Shown: one piece after another, positions 5,658-30,337 of the stretch | How positions within the stretch are numbered: the stretch's first letter is position 1 | Layout of the letters: each line of letters starts with the position of its first letter | DNA from: Ferroglobus placidus DSM 10642 | Lineage (GTDB): Archaea; Halobacteriota; Archaeoglobi; Archaeoglobales; Archaeoglobaceae | Length of the DNA: 32,000 bases | Direction of reading: 5' to 3' | Assembly: GCF_000025505.1 (NCBI RefSeq) | Contig: NC_013849.1 | Span: 360,001 to 392,000, forward strand | The notes under the pieces: model-generated | The model's database searches: none | The model's input: only the letters and a program-made list of their open reading frames with translations | Told to the model about the DNA's origin: nothing | Program-made: the position numbers and the translations under genes

Positions 5658-5701
5658 AAGATAAATTAAGAATCTTCCCGATATAAATATTACTTAATTC
5701 T

Positions 5702-6802: not shown

Positions 6803-6876
6803 GATTAAAATTAGCTTAGAAGAATTTTTAAAGCTGAAAGGAGTAGATTGCAAAGTTTAAAATAATTTCTTTCTCT

Positions 6877-8112: not shown

Positions 8113-8124
8113 GAAAGTACTATT

Positions 8125-8832
8125 ATGAGAAAAACTTGGAAGGCATTTGCGTTTGATTTCGATGGAACTCTCGTGGATAGTTATTCATGCTTACCAGCGA
8201 TTTATAGATCAATCGCAAAGCAGATCGGCTTACCTAGGGAAATGATTGGTAGATTCGTTAAAAAAGCAATAGAATACGAGGATATGCATGACTATCTCGG
8301 AAACTATGACAGAAAAACATGGTGGCCGGACCTTTTTGCTGAGTTTGATATAAAACATGAGGAGGAATTTCTTGATAAATTACTTAAAAAGTTCTGGGAA
8401 ATGCGGGCCGAAAAAAGTACCGTTATCGAAGGATGTACAGAAGTGCTGGAAGTTCTTAAAAATAAAGGTTTTGTCTTGGTGATTATTGCTGGAAACGATG
8501 GACAAAAAAGTATAAAGAGAATGAGAATTGAAAAAAGCGGATTAGCAAAATATTTTGATAATATCTTAATTGTCGGTGAGGATGTAAGGACTCGTGTTGA
8601 AGCAATTGAATTCGTGGCAAGGAATTATAAGCTGGATTTTAATGAGATTGTATTTGTTGACGACAAACCCTCGCCGATAAATGAGGTAAAAGCTGCAGTA
8701 AAGGAAATCGTAACAGTCAAAGTAGAATTTGAGGGTATTCTAAAACTTGCTTGGAAAGAGAAATGCAAAACGGATTTTGTAATAAACCATATAAAGAACC
8801 TTTTGGAAGTTTGTGAATTATCGTTACTTTAA
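8125..8832 (+). CDS. HAD-superfamily hydrolase/phosphatase
   Basis: Motif I is FDFDGTLVDS (DxDxT). The late motif is IVFVDDKP. It starts 13 nt after the toroid gene, with the same AT-rich composition. Confidence 0.8.
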   Translation: MRKTWKAFAFDFDGTLVDSYSCLPAIYRSIAKQIGLPREMIGRFVKKAIEYEDMHDYLGNYDRKTWWPDLFAEFDIKHEEEFLDKLLKKFWEMRAEKSTVIEGCTEVLEVLKNKGFVLVIIAGNDGQKSIKRMRIEKSGLAKYFDNILIVGEDVRTRVEAIEFVARNYKLDFNEIVFVDDKPSPINEVKAAVKEIVTVKVEFEGILKLAWKEKCKTDFVINHIKNLLEVCELSLL

Positions 8833-9042
8833 ACAGAAAAATTCGTTCATGACTCGAGTAATAGCTCTGTAGGGGGAAGGAGGAGGCTTTTGAGAGTGGC
8901 GCACCAGTTCGGCCCAACAAGCACCGAATACCTGAAAAAGCTGAGGGAAAGCTGCTTGAAAAAATTTTCATAGCTCTTCTGTGTATTGTTATTCATATAA
9001 CAACCATCAACTTTTTTAAAGGTTGTTACACAAATAACAACA

Positions 9043-9672
9043 ATGAAAAAGTTCACGAAATACGTGCTCGCGGAATTCGGAGGGAAGGTGATAACAAGAG
9101 AAGAATTTGAGAAAGCCTGTAGAAGGTTTGGAGAAAATACTGAAAGAGCGGTAAACTTCATGATATCATACGGTTATCTTGTAAGAATTCTGCGAGGGCT
9201 TTATTACGTGAAAACTCCCGAAGAGTTCAGCATGGGAAAAAGCGTCGATACATTGAAAATAATCTCTCTCGGAATGAACAGGTTGGGAGTAGAGTGGTAT
9301 TTCGGTCTGAATACTGCTCTCAGGCTCAACGGAGTTACGCACGAGTTTTCTCCGGTGATACACGTGATCAGCGATTCCATCTACAGGCCGAAGACAATAG
9401 AGATCAACAGAGAGGATGTAAAGTTCATAAAGCTGAAAAAGAATCTCTTCGGTTTTGGAGTTGTTGAGAAAAATTCGATGAAATACTCGGATCTTGAGAA
9501 AACACTCCTCGACATGGTTTATCTCTCGAGATACCGATCTACGCCCGAGGAAAGGATTGTGGCAACCCTGATAGAATACGGAAAGAAAGCCAGAAAGAAA
9601 AAGCTTGCTGAATATCTAAAGCGCTATCCGAAAAGTGTTGAGAGAGTGGTGAAAAATGCCGGACTTGTCTGA
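9043..9672 (+). CDS. abiEi: AbiEi-like antitoxin/transcriptional regulator (type IV TA)
   Basis: 209 aa with an N-terminal wHTH and an RGLYYV motif. It overlaps and precedes an AbiEii-type gene, which is the canonical arrangement. Confidence 0.7.
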   Translation: MKKFTKYVLAEFGGKVITREEFEKACRRFGENTERAVNFMISYGYLVRILRGLYYVKTPEEFSMGKSVDTLKIISLGMNRLGVEWYFGLNTALRLNGVTHEFSPVIHVISDSIYRPKTIEINREDVKFIKLKKNLFGFGVVEKNSMKYSDLEKTLLDMVYLSRYRSTPEERIVATLIEYGKKARKKKLAEYLKRYPKSVERVVKNAGLV

Positions 9673-10567
9673 GTTTGTTGCTTTCGTGGCCGAGAAATCG
9701 GGAATTCGGAAACCATCTCTAATAGAGAAAGACATTCTCATCCACAGAATTTTAAAGGGAATAAAAGAGAATTTCGGAGACAGCTACCTTTTCAAGGGTG
9801 GTAGCTGTATTGTGAAGTGCTACTTTGGCTATTACCGTTTCAGTGTGGATCTGGATTTCACATGGAGGGAGCAGGAAAAATGGAAAAGTCTCGGAAAGAG
9901 AAGGCTCAGAAAAGAGCTTGTCGCTCACGCCGGAAAATTCGCCTCGGTTCTTGAGAGTATTTCAGGTGAGACGGAGCTTGATTTCAGATGCGATCTGAAA
10001 AATACAAACTACGTTGAGTTCGGCAGCGGGAGCAGGATGGTGACATTCAAGCTCTGGAAGGACGGAGAGCTCATAAAGGTTCAGGTAAATTTTGTTGAGG
10101 AACTGCTTTTTCCTCATGAAAACAGAATCGCAGAAACGCTTCTTTCCGGGAAGAGGCTGAAAAGGGATGAAATGGCATACTTTCAGGACTTTCTTGATTT
10201 TTACACACCCTTTAAAGTCGCATGCTACAGTCTTAAGGAGATTCTCTGCGAGAAGATACGTGCGCTTCTAACGCGGCAGGCTTTCAAGCTCAGGGATGTT
10301 TACGATGTTTTCATGATCGAAAAAGCGGGAATGAAGGTTGAGAATTTCAGGGAGGAAATCATGAAAAAGATCGTGGCTGCCATGAAGTTTGAGAGATACA
10401 GAAAATCAGTGGAGAGGAGTGCTGAAAGCATCGAGCTTGAAAGTGTGATAAGCGATCCCTACGAACTCGAGATATTTATTTCAAAACCTGAAAGTGAGTT
10501 TTTCTCCTTTGCGAAGAAACTGGAAAATTTTCTTAGGGAAATTGCAACTAGTGCAGTAAAACTTTAA
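9656..10567 (+). CDS. abiEii: AbiEii/AbiGii (DUF1814) nucleotidyltransferase toxin
   Basis: LIEKDILIHRILKGI...YLFKGGSCIVKCYFGYYRFSVDLDFTW is the family-defining N-terminal signature (FKGG..RFS.DLDF). Confidence 0.85.
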   Translation: MPDLSEFVAFVAEKSGIRKPSLIEKDILIHRILKGIKENFGDSYLFKGGSCIVKCYFGYYRFSVDLDFTWREQEKWKSLGKRRLRKELVAHAGKFASVLESISGETELDFRCDLKNTNYVEFGSGSRMVTFKLWKDGELIKVQVNFVEELLFPHENRIAETLLSGKRLKRDEMAYFQDFLDFYTPFKVACYSLKEILCEKIRALLTRQAFKLRDVYDVFMIEKAGMKVENFREEIMKKIVAAMKFERYRKSVERSAESIELESVISDPYELEIFISKPESEFFSFAKKLENFLREIATSAVKL

Positions 10568-10692: not shown

Positions 10693-11904
10693 ATGAGGGT
10701 GGAGAGAGTATCTGAAGATATGGATGATATACACGCATACAGAAAACGCTACGAGATCGCAATCAGACTTCTTAAGAACTCGAATATCTCGGAAAGAAAT
10801 AAAGAGATCATTGAAAAATTCTGCAATGACTGCTTTGCTCAGGGAATAACAGCTGGAAGGGTGCAGAAATACGCATTTATTCTGAGAAAGGTTGCAGAAT
10901 GGCTGGGAAAAGATTTTGACAATATTATAGAGGACGATCTCAAGAGAGTTATTGCGATAATAAACACGTCTCCATTCACAGAATGGACAAAACACGATTA
11001 CAGGCGTTCGATAAAGAAGTTCTTCAAATGGCTGGGAAAGGAGGAGTTAGTCTCCTGGATAAAGTGCAGAGGACCAAAAAACAGAAAGCTTCCTGAGGAA
11101 ATTCTTACTGAGGATGATATAAAGAAGATGATAGACGTTGCCCAGAATTCTAGGGACAGGGCAATTATTTCTGTTCTCTACGAATCAGGATGCAGGGCAG
11201 GAGAGTTTCTCTCGATGAGAATGAAAAACGTTTCCTTTGACAGATACGGAGCTGTAATCATAGTTCACGGAAAAACAGGATACAGGAGAATAAGGCTTGT
11301 TTCCTCTTCTCCATATCTTGCGGAGTGGATAAACATGCATCCTTTCAGAGAAAATCCAGAGGCATGGCTCTGGATCTCGACAAAAACCTTCAGGAGAATA
11401 CCCTACAATACCCTTCGCGCAATCCTGAGAAACATAGCAATAAAAGCCGGAATACGGAAAAAGGTTAATCCGCACGCTTTCAGGCACGCGAGGGCAACTC
11501 ATTTAGCGAAGTTCCTTACAGAAGCGCAGATGAAGGAGTTCTTTGGCTGGGTTCAGGACAGCGATATGGCTTCTGTATATGTGCATCTATCTGGGAGAGA
11601 TGTTGATAGAGCAATACTTCAGCTCTACGGAATGCAGGTTGAGGATGAAAGAGAGGAAAACGAAAAGCTCATGCCGAGGAAATGCATGCGCTGCGGCGAG
11701 ATAAATCCAGCAACGAATAAAGTTTGCAGAAGTTGTTATTTCCCTCTTGATGGAAATGCTGAAAGTTTTCTGGAAAAGGAAGTGAAAAGAGAAATAATCG
11801 ATGCTGTTATAGAAACGCTGTGGAACGACAGGGAGTTCAGGGAAACGTTCATGCGCAAAATCAAAGAGCTTGCTGAACAGTCAAGAATTGCTGTTTATAG
11901 CTAA
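10693..11904 (+). CDS. int: tyrosine recombinase/integrase (Xer/phage-integrase family) with C-terminal zinc ribbon
   Basis: Catalytic set: RAIISVLYESGCRAGE (R), HGKTGYRRIRL (K), NPHAFRHARATH (HxxR..H), ASVYVHLSG (Y). Extra C-terminal CMRCGEINPATNKVCRSC. The real start is possibly the internal Met at MDDIHAYRKRY. Confidence 0.9.
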   Translation: MRVERVSEDMDDIHAYRKRYEIAIRLLKNSNISERNKEIIEKFCNDCFAQGITAGRVQKYAFILRKVAEWLGKDFDNIIEDDLKRVIAIINTSPFTEWTKHDYRRSIKKFFKWLGKEELVSWIKCRGPKNRKLPEEILTEDDIKKMIDVAQNSRDRAIISVLYESGCRAGEFLSMRMKNVSFDRYGAVIIVHGKTGYRRIRLVSSSPYLAEWINMHPFRENPEAWLWISTKTFRRIPYNTLRAILRNIAIKAGIRKKVNPHAFRHARATHLAKFLTEAQMKEFFGWVQDSDMASVYVHLSGRDVDRAILQLYGMQVEDEREENEKLMPRKCMRCGEINPATNKVCRSCYFPLDGNAESFLEKEVKREIIDAVIETLWNDREFRETFMRKIKELAEQSRIAVYS

Positions 11905-11944: not shown

Positions 11945-12160
11945 TCATTCTTTAGCTCTCTTTATAAATTCTTCTGCAAGCTCGCTGAAAACATCCTTTA
12001 CCCACTTTCTTTCCTCATCAAAGCTGCTCTTTTCTTCGAACTTATGTCCGTTCCTGCACCTGAAGATTCTTCTGAAAACTCCTTTGCTGAAATCGGGCTC
12101 GATGTTGCTAAGAATCGCATCCTCTCCGCAGAAAGGGCATTTCCTGAATATTCCGGGCAT
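11945..12160 (-). CDS. small zinc-ribbon protein
   Basis: MPGIFRKCPFCGEDAILSN..FRCRNGHKFEE (CxxC...CxxxH). The track ORF extends to 12214, but the ATG at 12160 gives a sensible N-terminus. Confidence 0.5.
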   Translation of the reverse strand: MPGIFRKCPFCGEDAILSNIEPDFSKGVFRRIFRCRNGHKFEEKSSFDEERKWVKDVFSELAEEFIKRAKE

Positions 12161-12258
12161 GATCCTATTTCTTGTAATGCATGAAGAAAAATAGAAAGAG
12201 AGAAATTCTTGCAAACTCGGGAATAATGGTTATAAATTTACAGTTTTTTAGTGTTTTT

Positions 12259-13609: not shown

Positions 13610-13909
13610 TTACCTTCTCTCAATTTTAAACCTCAGAAGTCCTTCAAATCCCAGAGCTAGCACCTCCGCTCTGAACTTCTCGTTCTCATACGTTTCCGAG
13701 TTGAAGGTGTGTGGTATCGTTCTGTATTCTCCGAAAAGGTCTTTCAGCACGTCTTTGACGGAGTTCCCTACCTCACTGAAAGACAGCTCACCAATTCTGT
13801 ATCTCTCTCCGTTCAGCTCGATTTCACCCCGGTCTATGTCATAGACTATCCGTACCTCCCTGTTTTTTCCGATATAATCTCTGAGCAAATTTTTCAGCTC
13901 CATGATCAT
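13610..13909 (-). CDS. hypothetical protein
   Basis: 99-aa track ORF with host-like codon usage, divergent from the protease gene. No motif recognised. Confidence 0.5.
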   Translation of the reverse strand: MIMELKNLLRDYIGKNREVRIVYDIDRGEIELNGERYRIGELSFSEVGNSVKDVLKDLFGEYRTIPHTFNSETYENEKFRAEVLALGFEGLLRFKIERR

Positions 13910-14025
13910 TTTCCTGTTCGAATTCGCTTATAACGGAAAGGAGAGTGGATTGCAAAATTGCAAAGCAAATTTTGTCAGCAATAAAAATTTTAAATTTTCC
14001 TTCATAATCTCATGAGGTGACCGGT

Positions 14026-14724
14026 ATGAAGAGAATTTTGCTGGCCCTGCTGCTGGTAGTCTTTGCCATTTCTATCGCGCATGCAGCGAGCAAGCCACAG
14101 CTGGAGAAAATAACGTTTGTTCACTACATTAAGGGCTCTCAGGGAAAACCAACATGGGATGAGAACGTAACGGATTACAAGCTAATTGCAGGAGGGATAA
14201 AGTGGAAGAGTCTGCCAATAAGGTACAGCATTTCACTGCATGGAAAACCGAGCAATCTCGATAACAACTTTGTTATCAGCGCGATAAATAACGCCTCGGA
14301 AACCTGGGATGAATATGTAGATGCGAACCTCTACGAGATGCAGAGCATAACAAACGAGCCTGTCATCTCCGGAGACGGCAATAACACGGTCGGCTGGGGT
14401 GTGCTTCCTGAAAATGTTATTGCCGTGACACATCTCTGGTACAATCCGGCAACAAAGGAAATAGTCGAGTTTGACATAGTTTTCAACACGCTCTATAAAT
14501 GGGGTAACGCGGATCCAGATAATGATGGAATAGCTGACAACCCTGACGTTATGGATCTGCAAAATATCGCAACTCATGAATTCGGCCACAACGGTCTTGA
14601 CGATCTAAGACCTCCGAAGGATTCGGAGCTGACGATGTACTACAAAAGCGATTACGGAGAGATAAAGAAGAGAACGCTTGGCATTGGAGACATTCTCGGA
14701 ATTCAGAAACTTTACGGTAGTTAG
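14026..14724 (+). CDS. secreted zinc metalloprotease (metzincin, matrixin/snapalysin-like)
   Basis: SD GAGGTGA at 14014-14020 and ATG at 14026. Signal peptide MKRILLALLLVVFAISIAHA. Zinc site HEFGHNGLDD (HExxHxxGxxD), followed by a Met-turn candidate SELTMYY. Confidence 0.8.
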   Translation: MKRILLALLLVVFAISIAHAASKPQLEKITFVHYIKGSQGKPTWDENVTDYKLIAGGIKWKSLPIRYSISLHGKPSNLDNNFVISAINNASETWDEYVDANLYEMQSITNEPVISGDGNNTVGWGVLPENVIAVTHLWYNPATKEIVEFDIVFNTLYKWGNADPDNDGIADNPDVMDLQNIATHEFGHNGLDDLRPPKDSELTMYYKSDYGEIKKRTLGIGDILGIQKLYGS

Positions 14725-14806: not shown

Positions 14807-15364
14807 ATGGATATCATGAAACTCGCCCGCTTTCTCGAGGAAATGCAGTATTTTCCAGAGAACATATCCTTCAGGGATGACTGGCTGGGATGGAAGCTGG
14901 TGTACTGCGATGCGCTTCTCTACATGCACGAGAGCCAGAAAGATGTTGTGAAAAATCTTGCAAAACATGCAGCTGAGCACGAGAACCACAAGCTCGTTTT
15001 CAGAACATCGGGAAACGTATTCTGTGATTACGTCTATCTCTTCGTGAACGACAGCGAAAATCCAGAGCTACCGTATTTCATGCTGAACAGAAATGAGATT
15101 TTCGAGTATTACGATGACTTTCTCGAAAGACTTTCTATTAAGGGAAACAGCATCGTGTTCAGAACGGATAGCGGGATTTACAGGTTTGACGATTATGAAT
15201 GGCTAATCGAGGAATATGGAGATGATGCCCGTGACGTCTTTCTGGAAGAGGAGTTCTGGCGCTACATCTATTCAGGACACTTTGATCCGCTTCCGCTCAC
15301 GGAGGAAGTGGATGTGTGGAGAAGGAAGGTAATTAGAGTTCACAGGGATGTGCCAAGAGTTTGA
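14807..15364 (+). CDS. hypothetical acidic protein
   Basis: The ATG at 14807 (MDIMKLARFLEEM..) is in frame with track ORF 14678..15364. The upstream part of that ORF overlaps the terminator region. No motif recognised. Confidence 0.55.
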   Translation: MDIMKLARFLEEMQYFPENISFRDDWLGWKLVYCDALLYMHESQKDVVKNLAKHAAEHENHKLVFRTSGNVFCDYVYLFVNDSENPELPYFMLNRNEIFEYYDDFLERLSIKGNSIVFRTDSGIYRFDDYEWLIEEYGDDARDVFLEEEFWRYIYSGHFDPLPLTEEVDVWRRKVIRVHRDVPRV

Positions 15365-15483: not shown

Positions 15484-15699
15484 ATGAAAGCAAATCCGTT
15501 TTCCGCACTTAGAAGAATGAGCACGGAAGCAGCTGTTTTTGCAGCAATAACACTGCTTCTCTCCACTCTTGCTGTGATGCAGGCACTTGCTGGAAATCTC
15601 ATAAATGCCATGCAACTCGAGATATTTGCTCTTCTCTCCCTTCAGCTATACCATTTCGAGATAACGAAGAGCATGATTAGAAGGGTGAGAAAGGAATGA
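15484..15699 (+). CDS. small membrane protein (1 TM)
   Basis: 71 aa with TM segment AAVFAAITLLLSTLAVMQALAG. Its stop overlaps the next start (ATGA at 15696). Confidence 0.55.
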   Translation: MKANPFSALRRMSTEAAVFAAITLLLSTLAVMQALAGNLINAMQLEIFALLSLQLYHFEITKSMIRRVRKE

Positions 15700-15884
15700 A
15701 GGCACTTCTTGCATTTGCCACGGGCCTTTTCCTCGGATTCATTGCAAGAACACTCGCAAGAAGTTTTAAAGGCACGGTGCTTTTGCTTGCCGCCATTATA
15801 GCTGTTACAGGGATACTCACAGAGAGAACAGAGCTGAGCCTGATAAGCATCCCCCTGATGCTCCTCGCGAGAAAGGGTGGTTGA
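15696..15884 (+). CDS. small membrane protein (2 TM)
   Basis: 62 aa with ALLAFATGLFLGFIARTLA and VLLLAAIIAVTGILT. Translationally coupled on both sides. Confidence 0.55.
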   Translation: MKALLAFATGLFLGFIARTLARSFKGTVLLLAAIIAVTGILTERTELSLISIPLMLLARKGG

Positions 15885-16671
15885 TATGATCGATTCGCTC
15901 AGAAGATTTCTCAGCGGTGTATGCAGACTCTCTCCGGAATTCATGCGGGAAATCAAGGTAGGTGAGCGCGTCAGGCTTAAGCCTGGAGAGATTTCGAATG
16001 ATTATCTTTTAAGCACAGCCTACAGGCTGCTCTGGAAGAGGAAGGAAATGTACTCGATTGAAATACGGAAAGGTGATGAAATAAACTGCTTTGCATCTGC
16101 AGGGAATACGGAAGCTCTTGAATATCTGCTGAGAAGACTCATGGCCGTGTATACCTTTCCAGAACTTGAGCCTGCATGCATTCAGCTTCCTGAAAAAGAA
16201 TGCTATGTCTCTGCTGGCTATGTTAAGCTATCAGGAACTCCCTACATGCTTCACGATCCCGAGCAGAATATCCTGACTCATGCCCTTGCTGCAGCGGATA
16301 ATGTGTTTGTGCAGTTTCTTTTCAAACCCGAGAAGATCGTTCTTGAAAGACTTGGTTATGAAAGCCCTGTTTTCAAGCTTCGTGTTTCTGTTGCAAGCTT
16401 TTCAGAGAGCTGGAAGGAGGCTGTGAATTCCTGTAAGCGTGTACTCGAGAGCTTCACAGTTCTGAGTTCTGCATATTCATCCCTCGTGCCAGTAATTCCA
16501 AGAGTGCCGAATTCGTGCGTTCTGCTCAGAAGCATGCTGGAGAGAAGGTTTCTTCCCGGTGATAACTTTAGAGTTACAGCTGAGGAGCTCGCCATGATCA
16601 CGAAAATTCCCGGTGATATTGTTGATAATCGGCACAGCAGGGAAAAGAAAACTGAAGATACCGATAAGTGA
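15877..16671 (+). CDS. hypothetical protein, possibly the N-terminal domain of the downstream ATPase
   Basis: 264 aa (GTG at 15877 or ATG at 15886). It ends ..VTAEELAMITKIPGD.. and overlaps the next ORF by 59 nt in a different frame. Confidence 0.6.
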   Translation: MVDMIDSLRRFLSGVCRLSPEFMREIKVGERVRLKPGEISNDYLLSTAYRLLWKRKEMYSIEIRKGDEINCFASAGNTEALEYLLRRLMAVYTFPELEPACIQLPEKECYVSAGYVKLSGTPYMLHDPEQNILTHALAAADNVFVQFLFKPEKIVLERLGYESPVFKLRVSVASFSESWKEAVNSCKRVLESFTVLSSAYSSLVPVIPRVPNSCVLLRSMLERRFLPGDNFRVTAEELAMITKIPGDIVDNRHSREKKTEDTDK

Positions 16672-18376
16672 TATCTTGCAGCACCAGCACGTGATAGGCG
16701 CGACAGGTACGGGAAAGAGCACTTTTCTGGCAAATCAGGCTGTGCAGGCGTTTGAAGAGGGAGCATGCTGCGTTGTGATAGATCCGCACGGGGATCTCGC
16801 TCTTGATATCCTGAGAGCTGTTAATCCGGGGGATCTTGGTAAGGTGTACTTTCTCGATCCCGTCAGAGTGCGCTTTTCTCTAAACCCGTTAGAGCTTCCC
16901 GCGGAGTGCCACAGCAGAGAAATAGCCGTTGAGAGAATGATAGGCGAGATCACCGAATTTTTCAGAAAATTCTATGGCAGGCAGTACTGGGGGCCGTCGC
17001 TGAACAGGATATTTCAGGAAGGGCTGAGAGCTCTCTACGAGAAAGATGACGCCCCCACGCTTGGTGATCTCTACGATCTCGTGAGCGGAAGAATAAGGCA
17101 TGAGGAATTTGAAAAAGAGCTGAAAAAGCTGCCGAGGGGAAGGACAGATGCCGTGCTCAACAAGCTCGCACCGTTTGTCAGGAACAGGTTTCTCTCCAGA
17201 ATTCTATGCTCAAAACCGGCAAGCGTCAGGATTGAAGAGCTCATGAAGCCGGGGAGCCTGGTGATTTTCAGGCTTTCCAGAGGAGAGATTTCTGAAGCTG
17301 TTTCATCCCTTCTCGGCTCCGCGATAATAACGCAGACGTGGCTCCATGCAATCTCCCGAGAGAGCAGGTTTCTGGTAATTCTTTTCATTGACGAGCTCCA
17401 GATATTCTCGCATCTTGAAACTCTCTGCAGCATTCTCTCGGAAGGAAGAAAGTACGCTATCTCGCTTGTTGCAGCCCATCAGCACCTGAAACAGCTTCCG
17501 GAAAAACTTCTCAACGATCTTCTTGGAAACGCAGGAATGAGGGTTGTTTTCAGGGTTTCCGGAGAGGATGCGAGAACTCTCGCAAGGGCTCTGGGAAATG
17601 AAGACATTTCTGAAAGACTTATCTCTCTTTCGGATGGAAGAGCAGTTGTGTGGATAAGGGGAAGCTTCAGGGAAGTGGAGAGGATTGTGGAGATTTCAAC
17701 ACTCCCGCTGATTTACAGAAATCCGTTTTCCGAACATGCCACAGATAGAATGCGGAAGCTTTTTGAAATTCCCGAAAGAGAGGAGGAATTTGCTGATCCT
17801 GAGATTTACGAGCTTCTCCACATTTTGCTAGAGAAAAGCATGAGCATGAGCGAGATATTTGAGAAATACAGGAAAATCCTTCCGGGAGTGAAAGCGAGCT
17901 ATGTCTCTGCTCTTGTTGAAAGAGTTGAAAGGCTCGGATTTGTTAAGAGGAATGTCGTGAAGCAGAGAAGGGGAAGGCCAAAGATTGTGGTTGAGCTGAG
18001 CGAGAAAGCTGTTGAACTTCTTGATCTAAGGCACACCTCGAGAAGAGCCGGAGGTGAGCTTCATTCGAAACTCGCAAAGATCTGCGCTGAAAGGTTAAGA
18101 AAAGATGGATGTGCCGTGATATTTCCTCCTCAGGCTGGAAGAGAAGAACAGCCGGACATGATAGCTTATAAAAGATCTCCTGATGGATGGGAAGAGATTG
18201 CGGTTGAAATTGAAACTAGAGCGGATCACCCTGAGCAGGTGATGAGAAACTACAAGAAGAATATCCGAAAGGGAAGGAAAGTAATTTTCGTTGTTCCGGA
18301 CGAGAGAATTGCTGAAAGAGTGAGAAAAATTCTTGGGGATAGGGATTACACTGTTGAAGTGACTGAATATTTTTAA
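16613..18376 (+). CDS. HerA/FtsK/T4CP-superfamily (DUF87-like) ATPase fused to wHTH and PD-(D/E)xK-like nuclease domains
   Basis: Walker A GATGTGKST, then VVIDPHGD, Walker B LVILFIDELQIF and VAAHQHLKQL. A MarR-like wHTH (SEIFEKYRKILPGVKASYVSALVERVERLGFVKR) follows. The C-terminal PDMIAY..EIAVEIET is a restriction-endonuclease-like motif. It has a GTG start only, and its frame opens at 16598. Confidence 0.8.
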   Translation: MILLIIGTAGKRKLKIPISDILQHQHVIGATGTGKSTFLANQAVQAFEEGACCVVIDPHGDLALDILRAVNPGDLGKVYFLDPVRVRFSLNPLELPAECHSREIAVERMIGEITEFFRKFYGRQYWGPSLNRIFQEGLRALYEKDDAPTLGDLYDLVSGRIRHEEFEKELKKLPRGRTDAVLNKLAPFVRNRFLSRILCSKPASVRIEELMKPGSLVIFRLSRGEISEAVSSLLGSAIITQTWLHAISRESRFLVILFIDELQIFSHLETLCSILSEGRKYAISLVAAHQHLKQLPEKLLNDLLGNAGMRVVFRVSGEDARTLARALGNEDISERLISLSDGRAVVWIRGSFREVERIVEISTLPLIYRNPFSEHATDRMRKLFEIPEREEEFADPEIYELLHILLEKSMSMSEIFEKYRKILPGVKASYVSALVERVERLGFVKRNVVKQRRGRPKIVVELSEKAVELLDLRHTSRRAGGELHSKLAKICAERLRKDGCAVIFPPQAGREEQPDMIAYKRSPDGWEEIAVEIETRADHPEQVMRNYKKNIRKGRKVIFVVPDERIAERVRKILGDRDYTVEVTEYF

Positions 18377-18410
18377 GTTCAAAAAATAAAGTAATAGTAA
18401 GGTGCTGAAC

Positions 18411-18695
18411 ATGGAGGGTATAGAGAAGATTAAGAACGAAATAATCCCTGTGCTGAAAAAGTATGATGTGAAGAGAGCAAGTCTATTTGGCTCTATTGTC
18501 AGAAAAGAGATGACAGAAAAAAGCGATATAGATCTGCTTGTCGAATTCGAAGGAAAGAAAAGCCTTCTAGATCTCGCAGAACTGAAAATTGAATTAGAGG
18601 AGAAACTTAAGAGAAAGGTCGATGTCCTCACGTATAAATCAATACATCCCTTACTGAGAGAAAGAATTCTGAGTGAAAAGGTGGATATCCTGTGA
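18411..18695 (+). CDS. mntA: MNT-type nucleotidyltransferase (antitoxin of HEPN/MNT pair)
   Basis: [22 protein letters not shown] (GS..R....SDxDLLV). SD AAGGTG lies 8 nt upstream of the ATG at 18411. The track ORF starts at the GTG at 18402. Confidence 0.85.
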
Positions 18696-19045
18696 AGAAG
18701 GATATTAGAACTTTTCTGCTACACATTCTCGAAAGCATAGAGATTATAGAAAAGCATACGCACGGTGTAAATAGGGAAGAGTTTATGGAAGATGTGAAAA
18801 CACAGGATGCCGTGTTAAGAAGGCTTGAAATTATAGGTGAAGCTGTAAAAAATATTCCGCAAGATTTCAGGGAAAAGTATCCTGAAATACCTTGGAAAGC
18901 GATTGCCGGAACAAGAGATATTCTGATTCACGAATACTTTGGAGTTGATCTCGATCTCGTATGGGAGATAATTGAAAGGGATCTGCCAGAGCTTAAAGAA
19001 AAAATAGAAAGAATTCTGAAGGATTTAGAGTTTTCTGAGAAGTAA
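18692..19045 (+). CDS. hepT: DUF86 HEPN-domain RNase (toxin of HEPN/MNT pair)
   Basis: The Rx4-6H motif is in [14 protein letters not shown]. It has a 4-nt GTGA overlap with the MNT gene. Confidence 0.85.
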
Positions 19046-19178: not shown

Positions 19179-19562
19179 GTGGCTGAAATGCTCGAAATGG
19201 AAAGGGAAACACTCGAAAGGTTCAAAAAGAAAGTTCTGAACAAGCTCGAGGATAGGGTTCATGCTATAGTAATTTACGGTTCTCTTGCAAGAGGAACATA
19301 CACGAAGGATAGCGACATAGATATTCTCGTGATAGGTGAAAACAAAGCGGACTGGGAAAGGGTTTCGAGAATAGCCTACGAGATCGATTATGAAAACGGC
19401 TTCAGGACGTTTATAACTACGATGTTCCTCACGAAGAACGAATTCGAGCAGAGGTTGAAAGCAGGAGATCCCTTTATTCACAACGTGCTGAGGGAGGGTG
19501 TGGTTCTTTATGACACGGGTGTCTATGAAGGATTTCGCAAGAGCATGCTTGAAGCTCGCTGA
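19179..19562 (+). CDS. MNT-type nucleotidyltransferase (second pair)
   Basis: VIYGSLARGTYTKDSDIDILVIG. Confidence 0.85.
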   Translation: MAEMLEMERETLERFKKKVLNKLEDRVHAIVIYGSLARGTYTKDSDIDILVIGENKADWERVSRIAYEIDYENGFRTFITTMFLTKNEFEQRLKAGDPFIHNVLREGVVLYDTGVYEGFRKSMLEAR

Positions 19563-19902
19563 AGATTTTGAAGATACAAAACCTGTGCTTGAACATTCAA
19601 GACTGATAACTGCCGTGAACTGCGCCTATTATGCTATGTTTCACGCGGCTCAGGCAATTCTCGCGTTTAACGGCATAGGGCCATCGAGAACTCACAGGGA
19701 TCTGAGAGAGGTTTTCGGAAAGGAGATCATTCTTAAAGGTCTTGCTGACAGAGAGCTTGGAAGGGTGTTGAGCAGAGCTTTTGAGCTGAGGCAGGCAAGC
19801 AGTTATGAAGTTTATGCCCACTTTGGCGAGGATGTTGTGAGGGAGATTGGGAAGAAAAGTGGGGGATTCGTTAAAAGGATAAAGGAATTCATGTCAGAGT
19901 AG
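19525..19902 (+). CDS. HEPN-domain protein (second pair)
   Basis: All-helical. AYYAMFHAAQAIL and LRQASSYE are typical of PF05168-type HEPN proteins. The ATG at 19525 is preferred over the track GTG at 19498. It overlaps the MNT gene. Confidence 0.75.
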   Translation: MKDFARACLKLAEDFEDTKPVLEHSRLITAVNCAYYAMFHAAQAILAFNGIGPSRTHRDLREVFGKEIILKGLADRELGRVLSRAFELRQASSYEVYAHFGEDVVREIGKKSGGFVKRIKEFMSE

Positions 19903-20075: not shown

Positions 20076-22001
20076 ATGTTTAAACTGGTGGTACCAAGTA
20101 TGATTCCAGAGATTTCACGAATATTAATGAGTTACAAAAAATCTTTGGATAAATCGAGAAGTAGGTACGAATCAATGTATAAAGAAAGATCTAAAAATGT
20201 AGAACGTTTTTATAATTCTTTTCTTAAGAACTTAATTATTACTCTTCATAAAGAAATTAATGATCCTGAAAAAAGAAGAGATGTTATTAGATTAATAAAA
20301 AATTTTTTCAGAAATGATAAAATAAAATTTATAGCTGTTGATGGAACTTGCTACAAAAACCAATTAGTAGATTATATGATCTTTTTTGGCGCATCTTATG
20401 CTATTAGAGGAACTATAGATCTAAACACATACCCGCCAAAAATTAAATATGAAAAATTTGCAGCAGAAGAAGATGTTAGCATGGTTGCATATGTTCCAAT
20501 TCCCTTTGCTGAGTTGGGGGAGGTTCTAGAGGAGAATTATCAATTTGTGAGTTCTGATGAGACAAGAATCGACCTCTCATCTATACATGTTCTTTTAATG
20601 CAATTAGCGGAGATCTATTTGCTTTACTCATTAGCAAAAAGGAGTGCATTGGAAGCACCTAAACTTCTATTGTGGGATCACTCTATTAGTAGTATTCTAG
20701 CAAGTACTGATGTGGGAATTATAACCCAAGAAGGAACTCCAAAAATAAAGCTCATTGGCTTTCATGAAACAGGTAGAGCTCTTTTAATTCAGGATGTAAT
20801 TATCGCGTATTCCCGTCCATGGAATAGTGAGTTAGATATACCAACGCCAAAGGAGTTTAGAATGTATAACTACGTTATTAGGAAAGCTTTTGAAAAAGGT
20901 AAAGAAGGTATAACGTTAGAAGAATTATCTCAACAATCTGGTGTCTCCAAGGACAGAATTTTGGAGAAATTAAAAGAGAGTAAAAAACTTGGGAAATATA
21001 TAATAAAAGATAAAAATGATATATCTTCAACCATCGAAGAGCAACCAATCCTTATTTTTGATAATGATAAAATCTTCTTTAACGAATTTTTCAGAGGATC
21101 ATGGAGGTTTGTAGTGGGAATCTTTGAGTATATCTGTGAGAAATTATTCAAAGAAAAGGATCCAGAGGCATTGATATATCGAAAATATACACCTGAGGGT
21201 GAAAAAGAATGCTGGCTTACACCAGATGATCTACGTTTTCTAATCGCAGTAGGCTTAAGAGCACTGATAGAAGAATGTTGGAAACAGGGAATATTATTCG
21301 TGGGTGTTGTAAAAGATTCGTCCACAAAGTATTTCAGTAAAAATTACATTGGGATATGCAAACATCTTGGAATATATAACTTCGATGATTCTTTAGCAAC
21401 ATTACCTTTACCATGGACTGACAGAACTCTTTTGGAGTTATTGCCTTATATTGACGAAAAAATTGAAGCACCGTGGAGTACAATAGAATTCGATTCCGTA
21501 TTCATGCAGCTTCACTTAGTGCAAACCCCAGACGGTAAGATTGAAATTCATGGTGTAAGAGGTGAAGCTACGAATCCTGAAAGAGTAGTTTTAAGGTCTT
21601 TAGCTCAATTTTACATAAATAGAAATCTCTACACTCCCTTAACAGGACATGTAATATTTATTGATAGAATAGCATTTCCTAGCGAAGATAAAAAATATTA
21701 CGGAGATAATAGACTCATTATTGAAACTAGAAGGCTTGGAAAAATAAAACCAGTCTTCTTCAAAGATAAAAATGAGAACAATATAATTCAGAAAATAATG
21801 CTTATTTTATTATCAGAGTTAACAAAAAACCTTTATCCAGAAGTTATTGGCTATCCAGATCCTTTACACAAAGCCGATTGGGGTGCAAAAAGTATATTGA
21901 AAAAAGTCAAACCTATTATTGACTCTGGAGAAATATCATTCAGAGCGCGCCCATTGAGAAAAACTCTCAGGGAACTAAGAGAAGAAGTAAGAAGATCGTA
22001 G
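20076..22001 (+). CDS. NurA-like nuclease with an embedded wHTH domain (641 aa)
   Basis: Motifs in NurA order: KFIAVDGTCY (DGS/T), MQLAEIYLL (E), LLLWDHSISS (hhhhD), LFVGVVKDSSTKYF (K-S) and GYPDPLHKADWGAK (YP..L..AD..A). The central segment KEGITLEELSQQSGVSKDRILEKLKESKKLGKYII is a clear HTH/wHTH. Strongly AT-rich codon usage. Confidence 0.7.
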   Translation: MFKLVVPSMIPEISRILMSYKKSLDKSRSRYESMYKERSKNVERFYNSFLKNLIITLHKEINDPEKRRDVIRLIKNFFRNDKIKFIAVDGTCYKNQLVDYMIFFGASYAIRGTIDLNTYPPKIKYEKFAAEEDVSMVAYVPIPFAELGEVLEENYQFVSSDETRIDLSSIHVLLMQLAEIYLLYSLAKRSALEAPKLLLWDHSISSILASTDVGIITQEGTPKIKLIGFHETGRALLIQDVIIAYSRPWNSELDIPTPKEFRMYNYVIRKAFEKGKEGITLEELSQQSGVSKDRILEKLKESKKLGKYIIKDKNDISSTIEEQPILIFDNDKIFFNEFFRGSWRFVVGIFEYICEKLFKEKDPEALIYRKYTPEGEKECWLTPDDLRFLIAVGLRALIEECWKQGILFVGVVKDSSTKYFSKNYIGICKHLGIYNFDDSLATLPLPWTDRTLLELLPYIDEKIEAPWSTIEFDSVFMQLHLVQTPDGKIEIHGVRGEATNPERVVLRSLAQFYINRNLYTPLTGHVIFIDRIAFPSEDKKYYGDNRLIIETRRLGKIKPVFFKDKNENNIIQKIMLILLSELTKNLYPEVIGYPDPLHKADWGAKSILKKVKPIIDSGEISFRARPLRKTLRELREEVRRS

Positions 22002-22016
22002 CAGAGGTGTAGAGTA

Positions 22017-23288
22017 ATGGAGATATTTAGGTTAGAAGGTTTTAATGGAAGGCTCTTAGCGGCGGAACCTGATGAACGAAGTAGATATAACTTTACTATA
22101 TGGTTTCCATATACTCGTGAACTTGTAAATGATATTCAAGATGGAGATCTTCTTGCAGTACCAAATTTCCAAAGTGACAGGGAACGGCCAGTATATAGTA
22201 TCTTAAAAGTTACAAATGTTCTTCCAAAGCATTTTGCATTACGAGGAAAGGAAGATACGAAGTCTTATCCTGGATATGTGTTAGAAGCAGCAAAAAATAT
22301 TGCAGCTTCGTGGGTTATTCAAGAAAGTGAACCATTAGAGGATACTACAATAATAGAGGTAGAAGCAATACCCACAAACTTGCAATTTAGGTTAAATGAA
22401 CAGAACAATCCAATTATAGAGGAAGAGAAGAGTATGCCAATGGTTGGAGAAGAAGTAAAATTACTATCCCCAGAATTTGTAATGAAAATCTTAAACAGTG
22501 GTATAAAATTTGGTTATGAGGAAATTATAGAGATAGGTCATTTAATTAGAGATAAAGAGATAAAGATTTACGTGAGAGTTGAAGATCTTGTAAGGACACA
22601 TTTCGGGATATTTGGTTATACTGGTGTAGGAAAAAGTAATCTTCTAAGCACAATTATCAGAAAACTTCTAACTGAAACAATTAAAATAGATGAAAAGCAG
22701 TTGCCTAAAAAAGAAATAAGAGAGCGAGAAAATATTAAAATCCTACTTTTTGATCTTATGGATGAATATATAAGTTTATTGATAGATCTGTTAGTGAATA
22801 ACAATCTTGATTCAAAAATAGTTTACATTGACCGAAGATCACTACCTAAAGCGGTAATCGATTATTTAAAAGGAAATGAGACTTTGATTAAAGCGATACA
22901 TGCTTTTTTGAGACAAATGTATATCCCAAAGGGATTATTAGACTGCAAGGATAAATATTATGAAAGAATAAGAGAAATTCTCGAGAAGGATAGAATAAAG
23001 ATTTGGGAGGAAGAATTTGAAATTAAGACTATCGATGAACTTATAGAAAAGATTTGGCCTGAAGTAATAGGAGATCTAAGATCCACTACAAAAATATCAA
23101 CTCTAGAAAGAGTAAAAGAGGATATACTCTCAGATGTAACTGGAAATGAGTTAACTCCAGAAAATTTGGATAAGATACTATCTAAACTTGGGGAAAGTAG
23201 TGTTTTTGGCTATCCACAACCTCAAAGTGTGATAAACTTACGAAAACAAAAAGATGGTAATGCCTCAGTAATGTTTATATTCAATTAG
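22017..23288 (+). CDS. HerA-like (DUF87) ATPase, 3'-truncated by IS insertion
   Basis: SD GAGGTG at 22004-22009. N-terminal barrel-like domain, then THFGIFGYTGVGKSNLL (Walker A) and ILLFDLMDEY (the hhhDphgEY motif that follows Walker A in HerA). No Walker B (hhhhDEAH) appears before the ORF runs into the IS inverted repeat at 23256. The last 10 codons (GNASVMFIFN) and the stop are IS sequence. Confidence 0.75.
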   Translation: MEIFRLEGFNGRLLAAEPDERSRYNFTIWFPYTRELVNDIQDGDLLAVPNFQSDRERPVYSILKVTNVLPKHFALRGKEDTKSYPGYVLEAAKNIAASWVIQESEPLEDTTIIEVEAIPTNLQFRLNEQNNPIIEEEKSMPMVGEEVKLLSPEFVMKILNSGIKFGYEEIIEIGHLIRDKEIKIYVRVEDLVRTHFGIFGYTGVGKSNLLSTIIRKLLTETIKIDEKQLPKKEIRERENIKILLFDLMDEYISLLIDLLVNNNLDSKIVYIDRRSLPKAVIDYLKGNETLIKAIHAFLRQMYIPKGLLDCKDKYYERIREILEKDRIKIWEEEFEIKTIDELIEKIWPEVIGDLRSTTKISTLERVKEDILSDVTGNELTPENLDKILSKLGESSVFGYPQPQSVINLRKQKDGNASVMFIFN

Positions 23289-23303
23289 TTGGATAAATCG
23301 GTG

Positions 23304-23588
23304 ATGATGTGTCCGCATTGCAAATCGATAAAAACTGTGAAAATGGGCTGTTATTACACGAAATCTGGTGAGAGGAGGCAGAGATACAAATGCAAGAGCT
23401 GCGGGAGAACTTTCGTTTTGAATCCGATAAAGCCGAGGAATTATCCCGAGGAATTTAAGGAGATGGTAGTTAGAGCTGTTGTGAAGGAGGGTGTAGGGAT
23501 AAGACAAGCGAGCAGAATTTTCAAGCTTTCTCCTAACACTGTGACAGCTTGGGTAAGAGAATTTTCTAAAAAAAGACCTGAGAAATGA
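23304..23588 (+). CDS. insA: IS1 InsA-like protein (zinc finger + HTH)
   Basis: MMCPHCKS..YKCKSCGRTF (CxxC..CxxC), then an HTH (GIRQASRIFKLSPNTVTAWV). The track ORF starts at the TTG at 23289. Confidence 0.8.
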   Translation: MMCPHCKSIKTVKMGCYYTKSGERRQRYKCKSCGRTFVLNPIKPRNYPEEFKEMVVRAVVKEGVGIRQASRIFKLSPNTVTAWVREFSKKRPEK

Positions 23589-24003
23589 GATTAGATCGGA
23601 AAAGCCTGTTATCGAGTTAGATGAAGCTTGGAGTTTTGTTAAGAAAAAGGAAAACGAAATCTGGATTTGGATTGCTTTAGAGAGAAATTCCCGAAAAATA
23701 ATAAGTTATGCAATAGGAGATCGTTCTGTGGATACTTTCAAGAAATTGTGGGACGGAATTGGCGATGAAATAAAGCGGAAAGCAATTTTCTACACGGATC
23801 GCTGGGACGCTTATAATTTGATTCCTTACAGGCAGAGAATCGTAAGAAGAGGAGGAACGAACCACGTTGAAAGGTTATTCTTAACTCTGAGAAATGATAA
23901 TCCGAGATTCGCAAGAAAATCAATCAGATTCTCAAAATCCTCGGAAATGCTCGAAAATTCTTTTAAATTGTGGATTCATTACTATAATTTATCAACATTA
24001 TAG
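23557..24003 (+). CDS. insB: IS1 InsB-like DDE transposase domain (no own start; needs recoding from insA)
   Basis: The frame is open from 23557. It reads ELDEAWSFVKKKENEIWIWIALERNSRKIISYAIGDRS..FYTDRWDAY..TNHVERLFLTLR (D, D, E). The stop lies inside the right inverted repeat. The track lists only 23728..24003. Confidence 0.8.
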   Translation, partial: ENFLKKDLRNEIRSEKPVIELDEAWSFVKKKENEIWIWIALERNSRKIISYAIGDRSVDTFKKLWDGIGDEIKRKAIFYTDRWDAYNLIPYRQRIVRRGGTNHVERLFLTLRNDNPRFARKSIRFSKSSEMLENSFKLWIHYYNLSTL

Positions 24004-27049: not shown

Positions 27050-27091
27050 CATTTGTATTTGTATTTTTAGAATTGTATTCGCTCAAACCAG

Positions 27092-27165
27092 TAGCCCCGG
27101 CCGGATTCGAACCGGCGTCGCCGGATCCAGAGTCCGGCAGGATTGTCCTACTACCACACGGGGCT
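27092..27165 (-). tRNA. tRNA-Gln (anticodon CUG), weak D-stem
   Basis: Acceptor stem AGCCCCG/CGGGGCT. Anticodon arm CCGGA-CTCTGGA-TCCGG (U33, CTG, G37). T arm GCCGG-TTCGAAT-CCGGC. Discriminator A, with no encoded CCA. The D arm TGGT-AGTAGGACAA-TCCT has only two G-C pairs, flanked by T-T mismatches. Confidence 0.75.
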
Positions 27166-30049: not shown

Positions 30050-30100
30050 CTTCCCCCTATCCCAGCAGGCCCAGCTCTTGGGTGCGAGGGCTTTGAGCGC

Positions 30101-30337
30101 TCAGCCATACAGCATCCCCACATTCTTTATCCTCCGTTTTGGTTTCTTACCCTCCCACCTCTCGCACGAGTGGTTTGCTGGAGTGATCATTCCTCTGAGG
30201 CCGCAGTAGCCATCACTCTCATCAACCGAATGCCAGCACCTGCAGCCAATACATCTCCCCCTGGGCAAGTTTCTCCACTTACTCCTGCCTTTTTTCTTAA
30301 CCTTCTTACCTGTTCTTTTCTTTCTCTCTCCGGCCAT
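30101..30337 (-). CDS. small basic Cys-rich (zinc-binding?) protein
   Basis: 78 aa with a Lys/Arg-rich N-terminus, then CIGCRCWHSVDESDGYCGLRGMITPANHSCERWE. Co-oriented between the two ATPase genes. Confidence 0.55.
   Translation of the reverse strand: MAGERKKRTGKKVKKKGRSKWRNLPRGRCIGCRCWHSVDESDGYCGLRGMITPANHSCERWEGKKPKRRIKNVGMLYG

Follow-up and report, generated by a model that had tools for sequence, protein, structure and literature searches.

What does an operon of two tiny membrane proteins, a soluble protein and an ATPase do on the chromosome of the archaeon Ferroglobus placidus? The operon lies in a window of 32,000 nucleotides of strain DSM 10642 (NC_013849.1, positions 360,001 to 392,000; all coordinates below are those of the window), where four co-directional open reading frames (ORFs) of 71, 62, 264 and 587 amino acids (aa) abut or overlap one another on the plus strand between 15484 and 18376, just as an original prediction from the sequence alone had described them. 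On balance, we favour the view that the operon encodes the DNA-transfer motor, a coupling protein or translocase, of an integrated plasmid-like and possibly mobilizable element. This view is built on the homology and domain architecture of the ATPase, on its relation to the 264-aa protein, on gene order and purifying selection in related loci, and on the mobile context of the operon.

The genes are tightly packed. The first, for the small membrane protein TM-A (orf71), runs from 15484 to 15699, and its stop codon is overlapped by the start of the second, for the membrane protein TM-B (orf62; 15696-15884), in the form ATGA; both were recognized from the ORF list and hydropathy. The third, Ferp_0435 (15877-16671), encodes a 264-aa product that is 100% identical to the NCBI protein, which is 261 aa long and starts at 15886, 2 nt past the orf62 stop. 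The ATPase gene (16613-18376) overlaps Ferp_0435 by ~50-59 nt, and a comparable overlap is found at an Archaeoglobus sp. locus, L001. Its 587-aa product, 100% identical to an NCBI protein of 584 aa with an annotated start at 16622, should be Ferp_0436 by locus-tag numbering. Within this protein a P-loop ATPase domain of the TraG or type IV coupling protein (T4CP) type (residues ~1-365; 16613-17707) is followed by a winged helix-turn-helix (wHTH) domain (residues ~396-470; 17798-18022) and by a PD..ExE restriction-endonuclease-like domain (residues ~481-583; 18053-18361).

The motor protein and its family

To which class of motor does the ATPase belong? NCBI names it a type IV secretory system conjugative DNA transfer family protein, and it scores above the Pfam gathering thresholds of TrwB_AAD_bind, TraG-D_C, DUF87 and T4SS-DNA_transf (60.3 bits for PF10412, TrwB_AAD_bind, with a threshold of 20.5; 34.2 bits for PF12696; 25.6 bits for PF02534). 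Its Walker A (GATGTGKS) and Walker B (DE) motifs, invariant among 24 homologue sequences, are ~220 residues apart. Plasmid relatives were detected by tblastn in 163 PLSDB records, the best of which cover 85-97% of the query at 22-30% identity. With E values from 1e-19 to 3e-60, these are the ~1020-aa TraG proteins of pAH1, pMGB1, pTC and other Sulfolobales conjugative plasmids and a 1370-aa protein of Thermococcus nautili 33-3, encoded on a plasmid of 103,230 bp. The Thermococcus protein is the top match (E 3e-60, with 30% identity across 92% of the query); from strain name and plasmid size we take its plasmid to be pT33-3, the first for which conjugation was shown in Euryarchaea. An all-vs-all BLAST comparison placed the query in one group with the pT33-3 protein (224 bits), pAH1 TraG (166 bits), a Patescibacteria protein that joins the domain DUF8128 to a T4CP (167 bits) and a second, 937-aa protein of F. 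placidus (102-121 bits); the VirB4/TrbE-like ATPases of F. placidus, pAH1 and the same Patescibacteria genome formed a separate group. Because it falls with the TraG/T4CP proteins and away from VirB4/TrbE, we assign the ATPase, on its sequence, to the VirD4/TrwB/TraG type of coupling protein and to an archaeal TraG/VirD4-like clade. Members of this family have been linked to transfer genetically: traG of pM164 is required for conjugation in S. islandicus (PMC9899855), and mutation of the VirB4- and VirD4-like genes of pT33-3 abolishes conjugation, according to a review (PMC12857230). Given the NCBI name and full-length TraG homologues that include a euryarchaeal plasmid protein, the operon does not represent the undescribed kind of system for which it had tentatively been taken.

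With the bacterial T4CPs (TrwB of R388, VirD4, TraD) the protein shares the P-loop nucleotide-binding domain and would share the presumed role of substrate receptor and DNA pump at the membrane. The bacterial proteins, in contrast, possess their own N-terminal anchor of two transmembrane (TM) helices, lack a VirB4-like N-domain, a wHTH and a nuclease domain, rely on a separate relaxase and are usually encoded together with a full mating-pair-formation system. A Kyte-Doolittle scan of the 587-aa and 264-aa proteins yielded zero TM segments in both, and thus no N-terminal anchor in the ATPase polypeptide itself. The ATPase therefore has the sequence of a T4CP and lacks two features of the usual context, a TM anchor in cis and a VirB4 partner on the same element.

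Several other identities were considered and rejected. Models of housekeeping HerA gave 32.9 bits (NCBIfam NF040937, cutoff 800) and 17.9 bits (NF040819, cutoff 970), and the neighbours of the gene are membrane proteins and toxin-antitoxin genes, not NurA/Mre11/Rad50. As to a VirB4-type ATPase domain, neither AAA_10 nor CagE matched, and TIGR00929 reached E 0.078 and 11 bits. The NCBIfam models of CedB (16.1 bits, cutoff 700) and CedD (25.9 bits, cutoff 600) picked up the P-loop only. Profile searches of the PDB with the ATPase family returned TrwB, with HerA-type helicases scoring equally well; the best match, above HerA and TrwB, was a 592-aa entry named 'DNA helicase' (9x1l, E 9.8e-13).

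What is the 264-aa protein? In pairwise BLAST it is collinear with the N-terminal part of ATPase homologues ~900 aa long (E 6e-9). From the proteins whose genes lie upstream of the ATPase in 13 related loci we built a profile, which matched the first ~290 residues of 13 fused archaeal proteins of ~900 aa (E 1e-71 to 1e-27) as well as the N-terminus of ~30 Patescibacteria proteins of ~730 aa. We place the protein in PF26449 (DUF8128) on the strength of such matches to PF26449-annotated proteins (E to 1e-71), of the PF26449 annotation carried by its syntenic neighbours in related loci, and of an exhaustive profile search that returned 2752 DUF8128 clusters at 50% identity. Among the 150 best matches the domain is almost always N-terminal, either standing alone (~250-300 aa) or in fusions of 700-1100 aa. 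Since other archaea and Patescibacteria have DUF8128 and this same ATPase in one chain, Ferp_0435 and the ATPase appear, from these alignments, to be the split version of what is a single polypeptide in other lineages. The protein had been described as soluble, in keeping with its lack of TM segments; by these alignments it is the split-off N-terminal domain of the motor. The fusions carry both domains in the same order. Those of archaea (~900 aa) retain the wHTH-nuclease tail as well and are preceded by a TM-B gene, whereas the ~730-aa forms of Patescibacteria, or Candidate Phyla Radiation (CPR), match the ATPase part only (51-65% of the query) and appear to lack the tail; some contain a hydrophobic stretch inside the chain, close to the N-terminus, and they may be exapted. 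We found no papers on DUF8128 or Ferp_0436 in the open-access literature.

The AlphaFold2 model of Ferp_0435 (pLDDT 89.9) suggests what this domain might do. Foldseek ranks 1-7 and 12 are all TrwK, the VirB4 protein of R388 (E 3e-4, probability 1.0, TMq ~0.5), and the remaining hits are weak ferredoxin-like folds. Because no other P-loop ATPase is found among the matches, the likeness is attributed to the N-terminal domain of VirB4, which the DUF8128 fold would thus resemble. Searching the PDB with the DUF8128 alignment gave nothing meaningful. The N-termini of pAH1 TraG and of the pT33-3 protein are not recognised by the DUF8128 hidden Markov model; with hhalign, the N-terminus of Sulfolobales TraG is collinear with DUF8128 over 207 columns (probability 49%, E 1.8e-4).

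What lies behind the motor domain? The model of residues 372-587 (pLDDT 87) consists of a winged helix followed by an alpha-beta-beta-beta-alpha-beta unit. Foldseek relates the former to the HypR, PadR, MarR and LmrR regulators (probability 1.0); Pfam detects HTH_34, Fe_dep_repress, PadR or MarR_2 in up to 12 of 17 family members, and an RGRPK wing is invariant in the family alignment. The latter contains three acidic residues, D515, E532 and E534, that are invariant in 24 sequences and sit where PD-(D/E)xK enzymes have theirs, D515 where strand 2 of the model begins and E532/E534 within strand 3. BamHI has the same D..ExE arrangement. Weak Foldseek matches to FokI and EndoMS/NucS extend into this part, and one of the 17 members scanned has a Pfam match to Hjc. 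The wHTH and the conserved PD..ExE motif that had been proposed are thus borne out, and nuclease activity of the second domain is possible, to judge from the model. The motif (R/Q)PD..A...IAVEIE(S/T)...HPEQV.RN recurs in the TraG proteins of pAH1, pMGB1, pTC and pNOB8, and the pT33-3 protein carries a PD...IAIEIE...H.EQ version. Because the plasmid proteins share the motif, the fusion to a wHTH and a nuclease-like domain may be regarded as a hallmark of the archaeal TraG clade: by sequence it is the norm in this family, and not the oddity that it had first seemed.

The closest parallels are accordingly plasmid proteins. Sulfolobales TraG (pNOB8, pAH1, pMGB1, pTC, pM164) offers the same T4CP ATPase and C-terminal nuclease-like motif over 85-97% of the query, and has a ~260-aa N-terminal domain at the position of DUF8128. 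The identity is 22-27%, however, and these proteins are single chains of ~1020 aa with an extra C-terminal tail, whereas the F. placidus N-domain is encoded by a separate gene. The Sulfolobales plasmids likewise encode small TM proteins just upstream of traG and have no relaxase; they differ in encoding a TrbE/VirB4-like ATPase and many membrane proteins that are absent from the F. placidus element. The pT33-3 protein is the best plasmid match, has the nuclease-like motif and comes from a euryarchaeal host, but is more than twice as long, with N-terminal 300 aa that escape the DUF8128 profile, and its 103-kb plasmid also has a VirB4-like gene.

Membrane partners and mobile context

Are the two small ORFs genuine partners of the motor? 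By Kyte-Doolittle hydropathy TM-A has one strong TM helix (~residues 17-35) and TM-B has two, the numbers first given for them; to these are to be added a conserved amphipathic or hydrophobic second helix in TM-A and a short hydrophobic C-terminal stretch in TM-B. We compared 16 related loci with an intact ATPase gene or its 5' part, 14 of them from protein look-up and a genome scan and two more (L018, L019) from Acidilobaceae. Directly upstream of DUF8128, a TM-B-like protein of 62-114 aa with 2-3 TM helices is encoded in 13 of the 16 (L001, L002, L003, L005, L007, L011-L017 and L027), one of which has a fused, 939-aa DUF8128-ATPase form. These proteins share the loop motif G..hG...(R/K)..A(R/K)..hG. 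TM-B is in turn preceded by an orf71-like protein in five loci: homologues of TM-A, 49-58% identical, in L001, L005 and L016, and analogous 67-69-aa proteins with two TM helices in L002 and L015. Identities of the small-ORF homologues range from 35-58%, with 50-58% to the closest (L001, L016), and dN/dS in the least saturated pair is 0.15 for TM-A, 0.23 for TM-B and 0.16 for DUF8128. Conservation of this kind marks orf71 and orf62 as real genes that evolve together with the module. Neither protein has a credible family in Pfam, NCBIfam, PHROGs or PADLOC, nor a match to a pilin, VirB2 or VirB3 model; one small-protein homologue matches FUN14 below threshold (22.2 bits).

The order of a small TM protein, an N-domain and an ATPase mirrors virB3-virB4, and VirB3 is the membrane anchor of VirB4 (PMC12102498). 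From position, topology and the modelled DUF8128 fold, TM-B may be the membrane anchor of DUF8128 and a positional analogue of VirB3. Compared with VirB3-VirB4 (TrwM-TrwK of R388), the gene order is the same and TrwK supplies the only strong fold matches of the DUF8128 model; in contrast, the ATPase domain is not of the VirB4 type, TM-B has no sequence likeness to VirB3/PrgI models, and the likeness in fold is moderate.

The gene order recurs in many independent loci, labelled Archaeoglobus, Geoglobus, Thermoplasmatota or unclassified archaea, and close protein homologues are also named Methanophagales. Two loci with the full archaeal-type module, L005 (JAMOOR010000086.1; with Orc1/Cdc6 and integrase) and L013 (CAZOVB010000113.1), come from metagenome-assembled genomes (MAGs) binned as Thermotogaceae and Planctomycetaceae, which is probably mis-binning. 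The contig of Archaeoglobus sp. UBA230 (L008, 8001-9074) holds a truncated ATPase of 359 aa, 70% identical and without upstream DUF8128 and TM genes; it has the appearance of a decayed copy, although its cluster is represented on 14 contigs.

Could the operon, like this last gene, be a decaying remnant of a larger conjugative element, or else encode the packaging ATPase of a provirus? FtsK/HerA-superfamily ATPases do package DNA in membrane-containing viruses, a PHROG terminase model matches the P-loop (E 1e-6; residues 23-73 only), and two PHROGs of unknown function match as well; the truncated, partnerless gene of L008 would fit a remnant. However, an alignment scan with the ATPase found no relative among 2.9 million IMG/VR contigs, the matches in phage GenBank entries are weak, confined to the P-loop and from Bacillus phages, no capsid genes are present, and many lineages have all four ORFs in intact form and under purifying selection. 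We therefore hold either possibility to be very improbable.

On what kind of element does the module ride? A XerA-like tyrosine integrase is encoded upstream (10693-11904, plus strand; Phage_integrase 79.7 bits; NCBIfam XerA 126 bits, under its cutoff). It ends 3.58 kb before the operon, and its orthologues lie next to the same module in L001, L005 and L016. Clustering of all ORFs from 14 loci and the window revealed two types of backbone. The Archaeoglobi type (window, L001, L005, L016) comprises the integrase, a small Zn-ribbon-like protein, a 99-aa protein, a ~185-aa protein, the module and a toxin-antitoxin pair. In the window, the Zn-ribbon-like gene occupies 11945-12214 on the minus strand; its translation has a CxxC...C..H pattern and no Pfam match, and its BLAST cluster spans seven loci (window, L001, L003, L005, L011, L016, L017). 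The 99-aa protein (13610-13909, minus strand), with orthologues in L001, L005 and L016, matches neither Pfam nor PHROG. Directly upstream of the operon lies the gene of the soluble ~185-aa protein (14807-15364, plus strand; no Pfam match), which has 185-186-aa homologues in L005 and L016 and fragments in L015; the ORF was listed from 14678, and homologue lengths point to the start at 14807. The MNT/HepT pair (18402-19045, plus strand; Polbeta/NTP_transf_2 and HepT-like) follows the ATPase also in L001 and L005. A second MNT/HEPN pair lies further downstream (19179-19902). In the Thermoplasmatota-type loci and L027, the backbone is an Orc1/Cdc6-like gene together with the module. Such genes accompany it in L003, L005, L006, L011, L014, L017 and L027, and the window has an Orc1/Cdc6-like AAA+ protein of its own (5702-6853, minus strand; Cdc6_lid, AAA_22, AAA_16), probably the replication initiator of the element or island. 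Within 8 kb of the module, none of the 14 loci has a VirB4-like ATPase or a conserved polytopic membrane protein. The gene set is that of an integrated plasmid-like element, as had been expected from an integrase ~3.6 kb upstream and two toxin-antitoxin pairs downstream; the proposed likeness to the minimal conjugation modules of archaeal plasmids, small membrane proteins plus an FtsK/HerA-superfamily ATPase, was likewise correct. Moreover, the ATPase is neither of the housekeeping HerA nor of the viral packaging type, the small ORFs are conserved with it, and the synteny extends well beyond this genome.

The regular company of Orc1/Cdc6 raises the question of whether the module might serve replication, segregation or resolution, as a helicase or FtsK-like pump that works with Orc1/Cdc6 or the integrase and transfers nothing between cells. 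The wHTH could then bind an origin or a dif-like site, and the equal PDB scores of HerA-type helicases and TrwB would be accounted for. A conserved membrane partner and a docking domain like that of VirB4 indicate a function at the membrane, however, and the full-length likeness is to TraG of conjugative plasmids, which have separate replication modules. Such a helper role thus seems decidedly improbable.

The region holds other genes as well. Upstream of the integrase (4232-10567), a GmrSD-like endonuclease (4232-5299, minus strand), a HAD hydrolase and an AbiEii toxin (9656-10567) are further cargo of the defence or mobile-element kind; a 209-aa ORF without Pfam match (9043-9672) overlaps the toxin gene and could be its antitoxin partner. 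Within the element, a short way upstream of the operon, lies the gene of a matrixin-like secreted zinc metalloprotease with a signal peptide (14017-14724, plus strand; Peptidase_M10, 28.4 bits), which is not conserved in related loci; a VirB1-like role in opening the S-layer is pure speculation. Downstream, a region of very low GC content (32-35%; 20076-23288, plus strand) encodes a 641-aa protein without family match and a 423-aa HerA-like ATPase (PADLOC HerA 'type III coevolved', E 1.9e-37; DUF87), together perhaps a defence pair of the NurA/HerA type. Remnants of the IS1 family (23289-24003, plus strand) sit at the edge of this low-GC island, just before feoAB: they are an InsA-like ORF with Zn-ribbon/HTH and a short piece of DDE_Tnp_IS1.

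How the module might move DNA

How might so small a set of proteins promote DNA transfer? We picture a scenario in which TM-B, with TM-A as an accessory membrane subunit, anchors DUF8128 and so replaces the N-terminal TM domain of bacterial coupling proteins, while DUF8128 would hold the soluble ATPase at the membrane. The ATPase would form a ring, as its relatives do, and pump DNA. Its C-terminal wHTH might recognise a site on the element, and the PD..ExE domain, with an acidic triad like that of BamHI, might nick or cut the site so selected, in place of the relaxase step of bacteria. The DNA would finally leave through a mating channel provided in trans, for example by a type IV secretion system (T4SS)-like cluster 9 kb downstream. 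A channel in trans is invoked because the element has no VirB4, pilin or VirB6 of its own, and we consider its use the most likely arrangement. The element would then be an archaeal counterpart of the integrative mobilizable elements of bacteria, which take over the mating pore that a conjugative element supplies, as has been described (PMC5357655).

Is there an apparatus that could serve as such a channel? A complete T4SS-like cluster, overlooked at first, starts 9 kb downstream of the operon, just past a tRNA-Gln gene (27091-27165). It fills 27221-32000 on the minus strand and continues beyond the window (L028, 1-12814). Its first gene encodes the 937-aa T4CP-like ATPase, a paralogue of the operon ATPase with 27% identity over 369 residues and, by eye, a PD..EVE motif; next come a 78-aa ORF and a VirB4-like ATPase (604 aa in full) that matches AAA_10 and P-loop_TraG. 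A contig with an identical 937-aa protein continues with a TraC-like protein that has N-terminal TM helices, TraF-like thioredoxins, a prepilin peptidase, an archaeal pilin and a T4SS_pilin (PF18895) protein. The TraC-like protein was read as a split VirB3/VirB4 N-domain. From this gene content the apparatus appears to be conjugation-like or Ted/Ced-like; the paper on Ced and Ted (PMC9905601) mentions neither Archaeoglobi nor Ferroglobus. At the CPR locus L026, a DUF8128-T4CP gene abuts a PrgI/TraC-like/VirB4 cluster, as is expected of a coupling protein.

The operon itself had been likened to the Ced importer, an analogy that has to be given up in its central point. Common to the operon and to Ced/Ted (CedA, CedA1, CedA2, CedB, CedD; TedA-C) are small two-helix membrane proteins, an FtsK/HerA-superfamily ATPase with a VirB4-like N-domain, and a derivation from conjugation machinery. 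In contrast, CedB, CedD and TedB are of the VirB4 type and the F. placidus motor is of the VirD4/TraG type; a polytopic CedA/VirB6-like channel protein is absent from operon and element, and the TM proteins match no pilin model. Ced, furthermore, is a chromosomal system for DNA-damage-induced import, whereas the module rides on an integrase/Orc1 element.

Several points weigh against the transfer motor that we favour. Its function is transferred from homologues that are just 22-30% identical. On plasmids of proven conjugative ability, TraG is encoded along with a VirB4/TrbE ATPase and a number of membrane proteins on the same element; the module never has such company, and the related loci are MAG contigs in which the survey for VirB4 spans 8 kb around the module. 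The T4SS cluster has a T4CP-like ATPase of its own, the 937-aa protein, and its tie to the operon is hypothetical. Most T4CP homologues of Patescibacteria are far from virB4, one is non-essential, and exaptation is considered possible (PMC12102498). As for the docking domain, the likeness to VirB4 is moderate (TMq ~0.5, E 3e-4) and derives from one solved protein, hhalign detects no relation between DUF8128 and the TraC-like (PF26593) N-domains of VirB4, and homology to the N-terminus of Sulfolobus TraG is, by profile comparison, only suggestive. In the nuclease-like domain, the catalytic Lys of PD-(D/E)xK is replaced by Glu. No direct repeats of at least 12-15 nt are found at tRNA-Gln or anywhere in the window that could mark att sites at the borders of the element; oriT-like repeats were likewise not found, and a k-mer search of 10.6-20 kb for a repeated recognition motif gave nothing above shuffled controls. 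Finally, the flanks of the module are rich in defence genes. The sole repeat encountered is a 21-nt direct repeat (86% identical, 14 nt exact), with one copy in the DUF8128 gene (16195-16215) and the other in the ATPase gene (17891-17911); by our own estimate chance alone would give two or so matches of this kind per 32 kb, and it is probably meaningless.

Might the defence genes indicate the true function? In that case a membrane-associated ATPase with a DNA-binding and a nuclease domain would sense and degrade invading viral or plasmid DNA. The ATPase matches mad8 of the MADS system in PADLOC (E 4e-20) and, weakly, HerA defence models; the island includes GmrSD, AbiEi/Eii, two MNT/HEPN pairs and the HerA-like pair, and genes of CTD8/MC2 conflict systems adjoin the module in L003. 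(On this Thermoplasmatota contig, L003/L004, 3275-6717, CTD8 and MC2 domain proteins and a 639-aa protein precede the module.) Conservation of the nuclease-like domain would also fit. However, no other MADS gene is present, the module goes with the integrase and Orc1/Cdc6 backbone and not with the variable cargo, and its closest characterised relatives are conjugation proteins with the same nuclease-like domain; the context, moreover, does not discriminate, as defence genes often ride on mobile elements. A defence role is in our estimate improbable. MADS as such was rejected: eight further proteins, three from the operon and five neighbours, gave no convincing mad match, the 423-aa HerA-like protein showing weak mad8/mad3 matches only.

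If transfer is the function after all, must a channel be borrowed? At its boldest, the transfer hypothesis would make the module a self-contained device that needs no relaxase. TM-B and DUF8128, of the VirB3/VirB4-N type, would dock the motor, whose own wHTH and BamHI-like PD..ExE domain would select and cut the DNA of the element; the nuclease-like domain, which TraG of pNOB8-type plasmids and the pT33-3 protein share, would then be the missing 'relaxase' of archaeal conjugation, and these proteins, by their VirB4-like N-domain, a surviving intermediate between VirB4 and coupling proteins. Such a device is an attractive but doubtful proposition, to which we give about one chance in a handful.

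Alternatively, double-stranded DNA might be transferred by a single self-sufficient motor, the small membrane proteins and the ring ATPase being the whole translocon and the wHTH loading the motor, with no VirB4, pilus or relaxase involved. Streptomyces TraB and FtsK, whose gamma domain reads KOPS, are motors with a C-terminal wHTH that load on a specific site, and the design of the F. placidus ATPase is that of such sequence-directed DNA pumps. The compact module is also stable in diverse lineages, its 14 loci being free of VirB4, pilin and VirB6 within 8 kb, and integrase and Orc1/Cdc6 on the same element would cover the rest of an autonomous life cycle. Transfer of double-stranded DNA has been proposed for archaeal plasmids (PMC6563490). 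Yet two proteins of 1-3 TM helices would make a thin channel across membrane and S-layer, the Pfam model FtsK_SpoIIIE does not match the ATPase, no repeated recognition motif emerged from the k-mer search, and the archaeal plasmids that are conjugative by experiment all need or carry a VirB4-like ATPase. This mode of transfer is the main rival of the motor that we favour, and we hold it to be unlikely.

Consequences for archaeal gene transfer

As a class, the module is unsurprising, a compact and recurring version of the known archaeal TraG machine, and if it were merely a passenger or a defence gene set, our findings would amount to a routine refinement of annotation. They do, however, define that compact module, namely one or two small membrane proteins, a DUF8128 protein like the VirB4 N-domain and a motor, on elements with integrase and/or Orc1/Cdc6, and such elements may form a euryarchaeal class of their own, mobilizable or minimally self-transferring. 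They also provide a structural hypothesis for DUF8128, a family of ~2750 clusters at 50% identity, which may also account for a part of the orphan T4CP genes that Patescibacteria possess in their thousands. In open-access papers we found no prior description of a nuclease-like domain in archaeal TraG, of a VirB4-like fold of DUF8128 or of the compact module.

How is DNA prepared for transfer in Archaea? According to reviews (PMC9905601, PMC12857230), the conjugative plasmids of archaea have yielded no relaxase, and how conjugation works in these organisms is still unexplained. The conserved wHTH and PD..ExE domains of the archaeal TraG/VirD4-like clade are a concrete candidate for DNA processing without a relaxase, and the candidate domain is open to point mutation in systems with genetics, pT33-3 and pM164.

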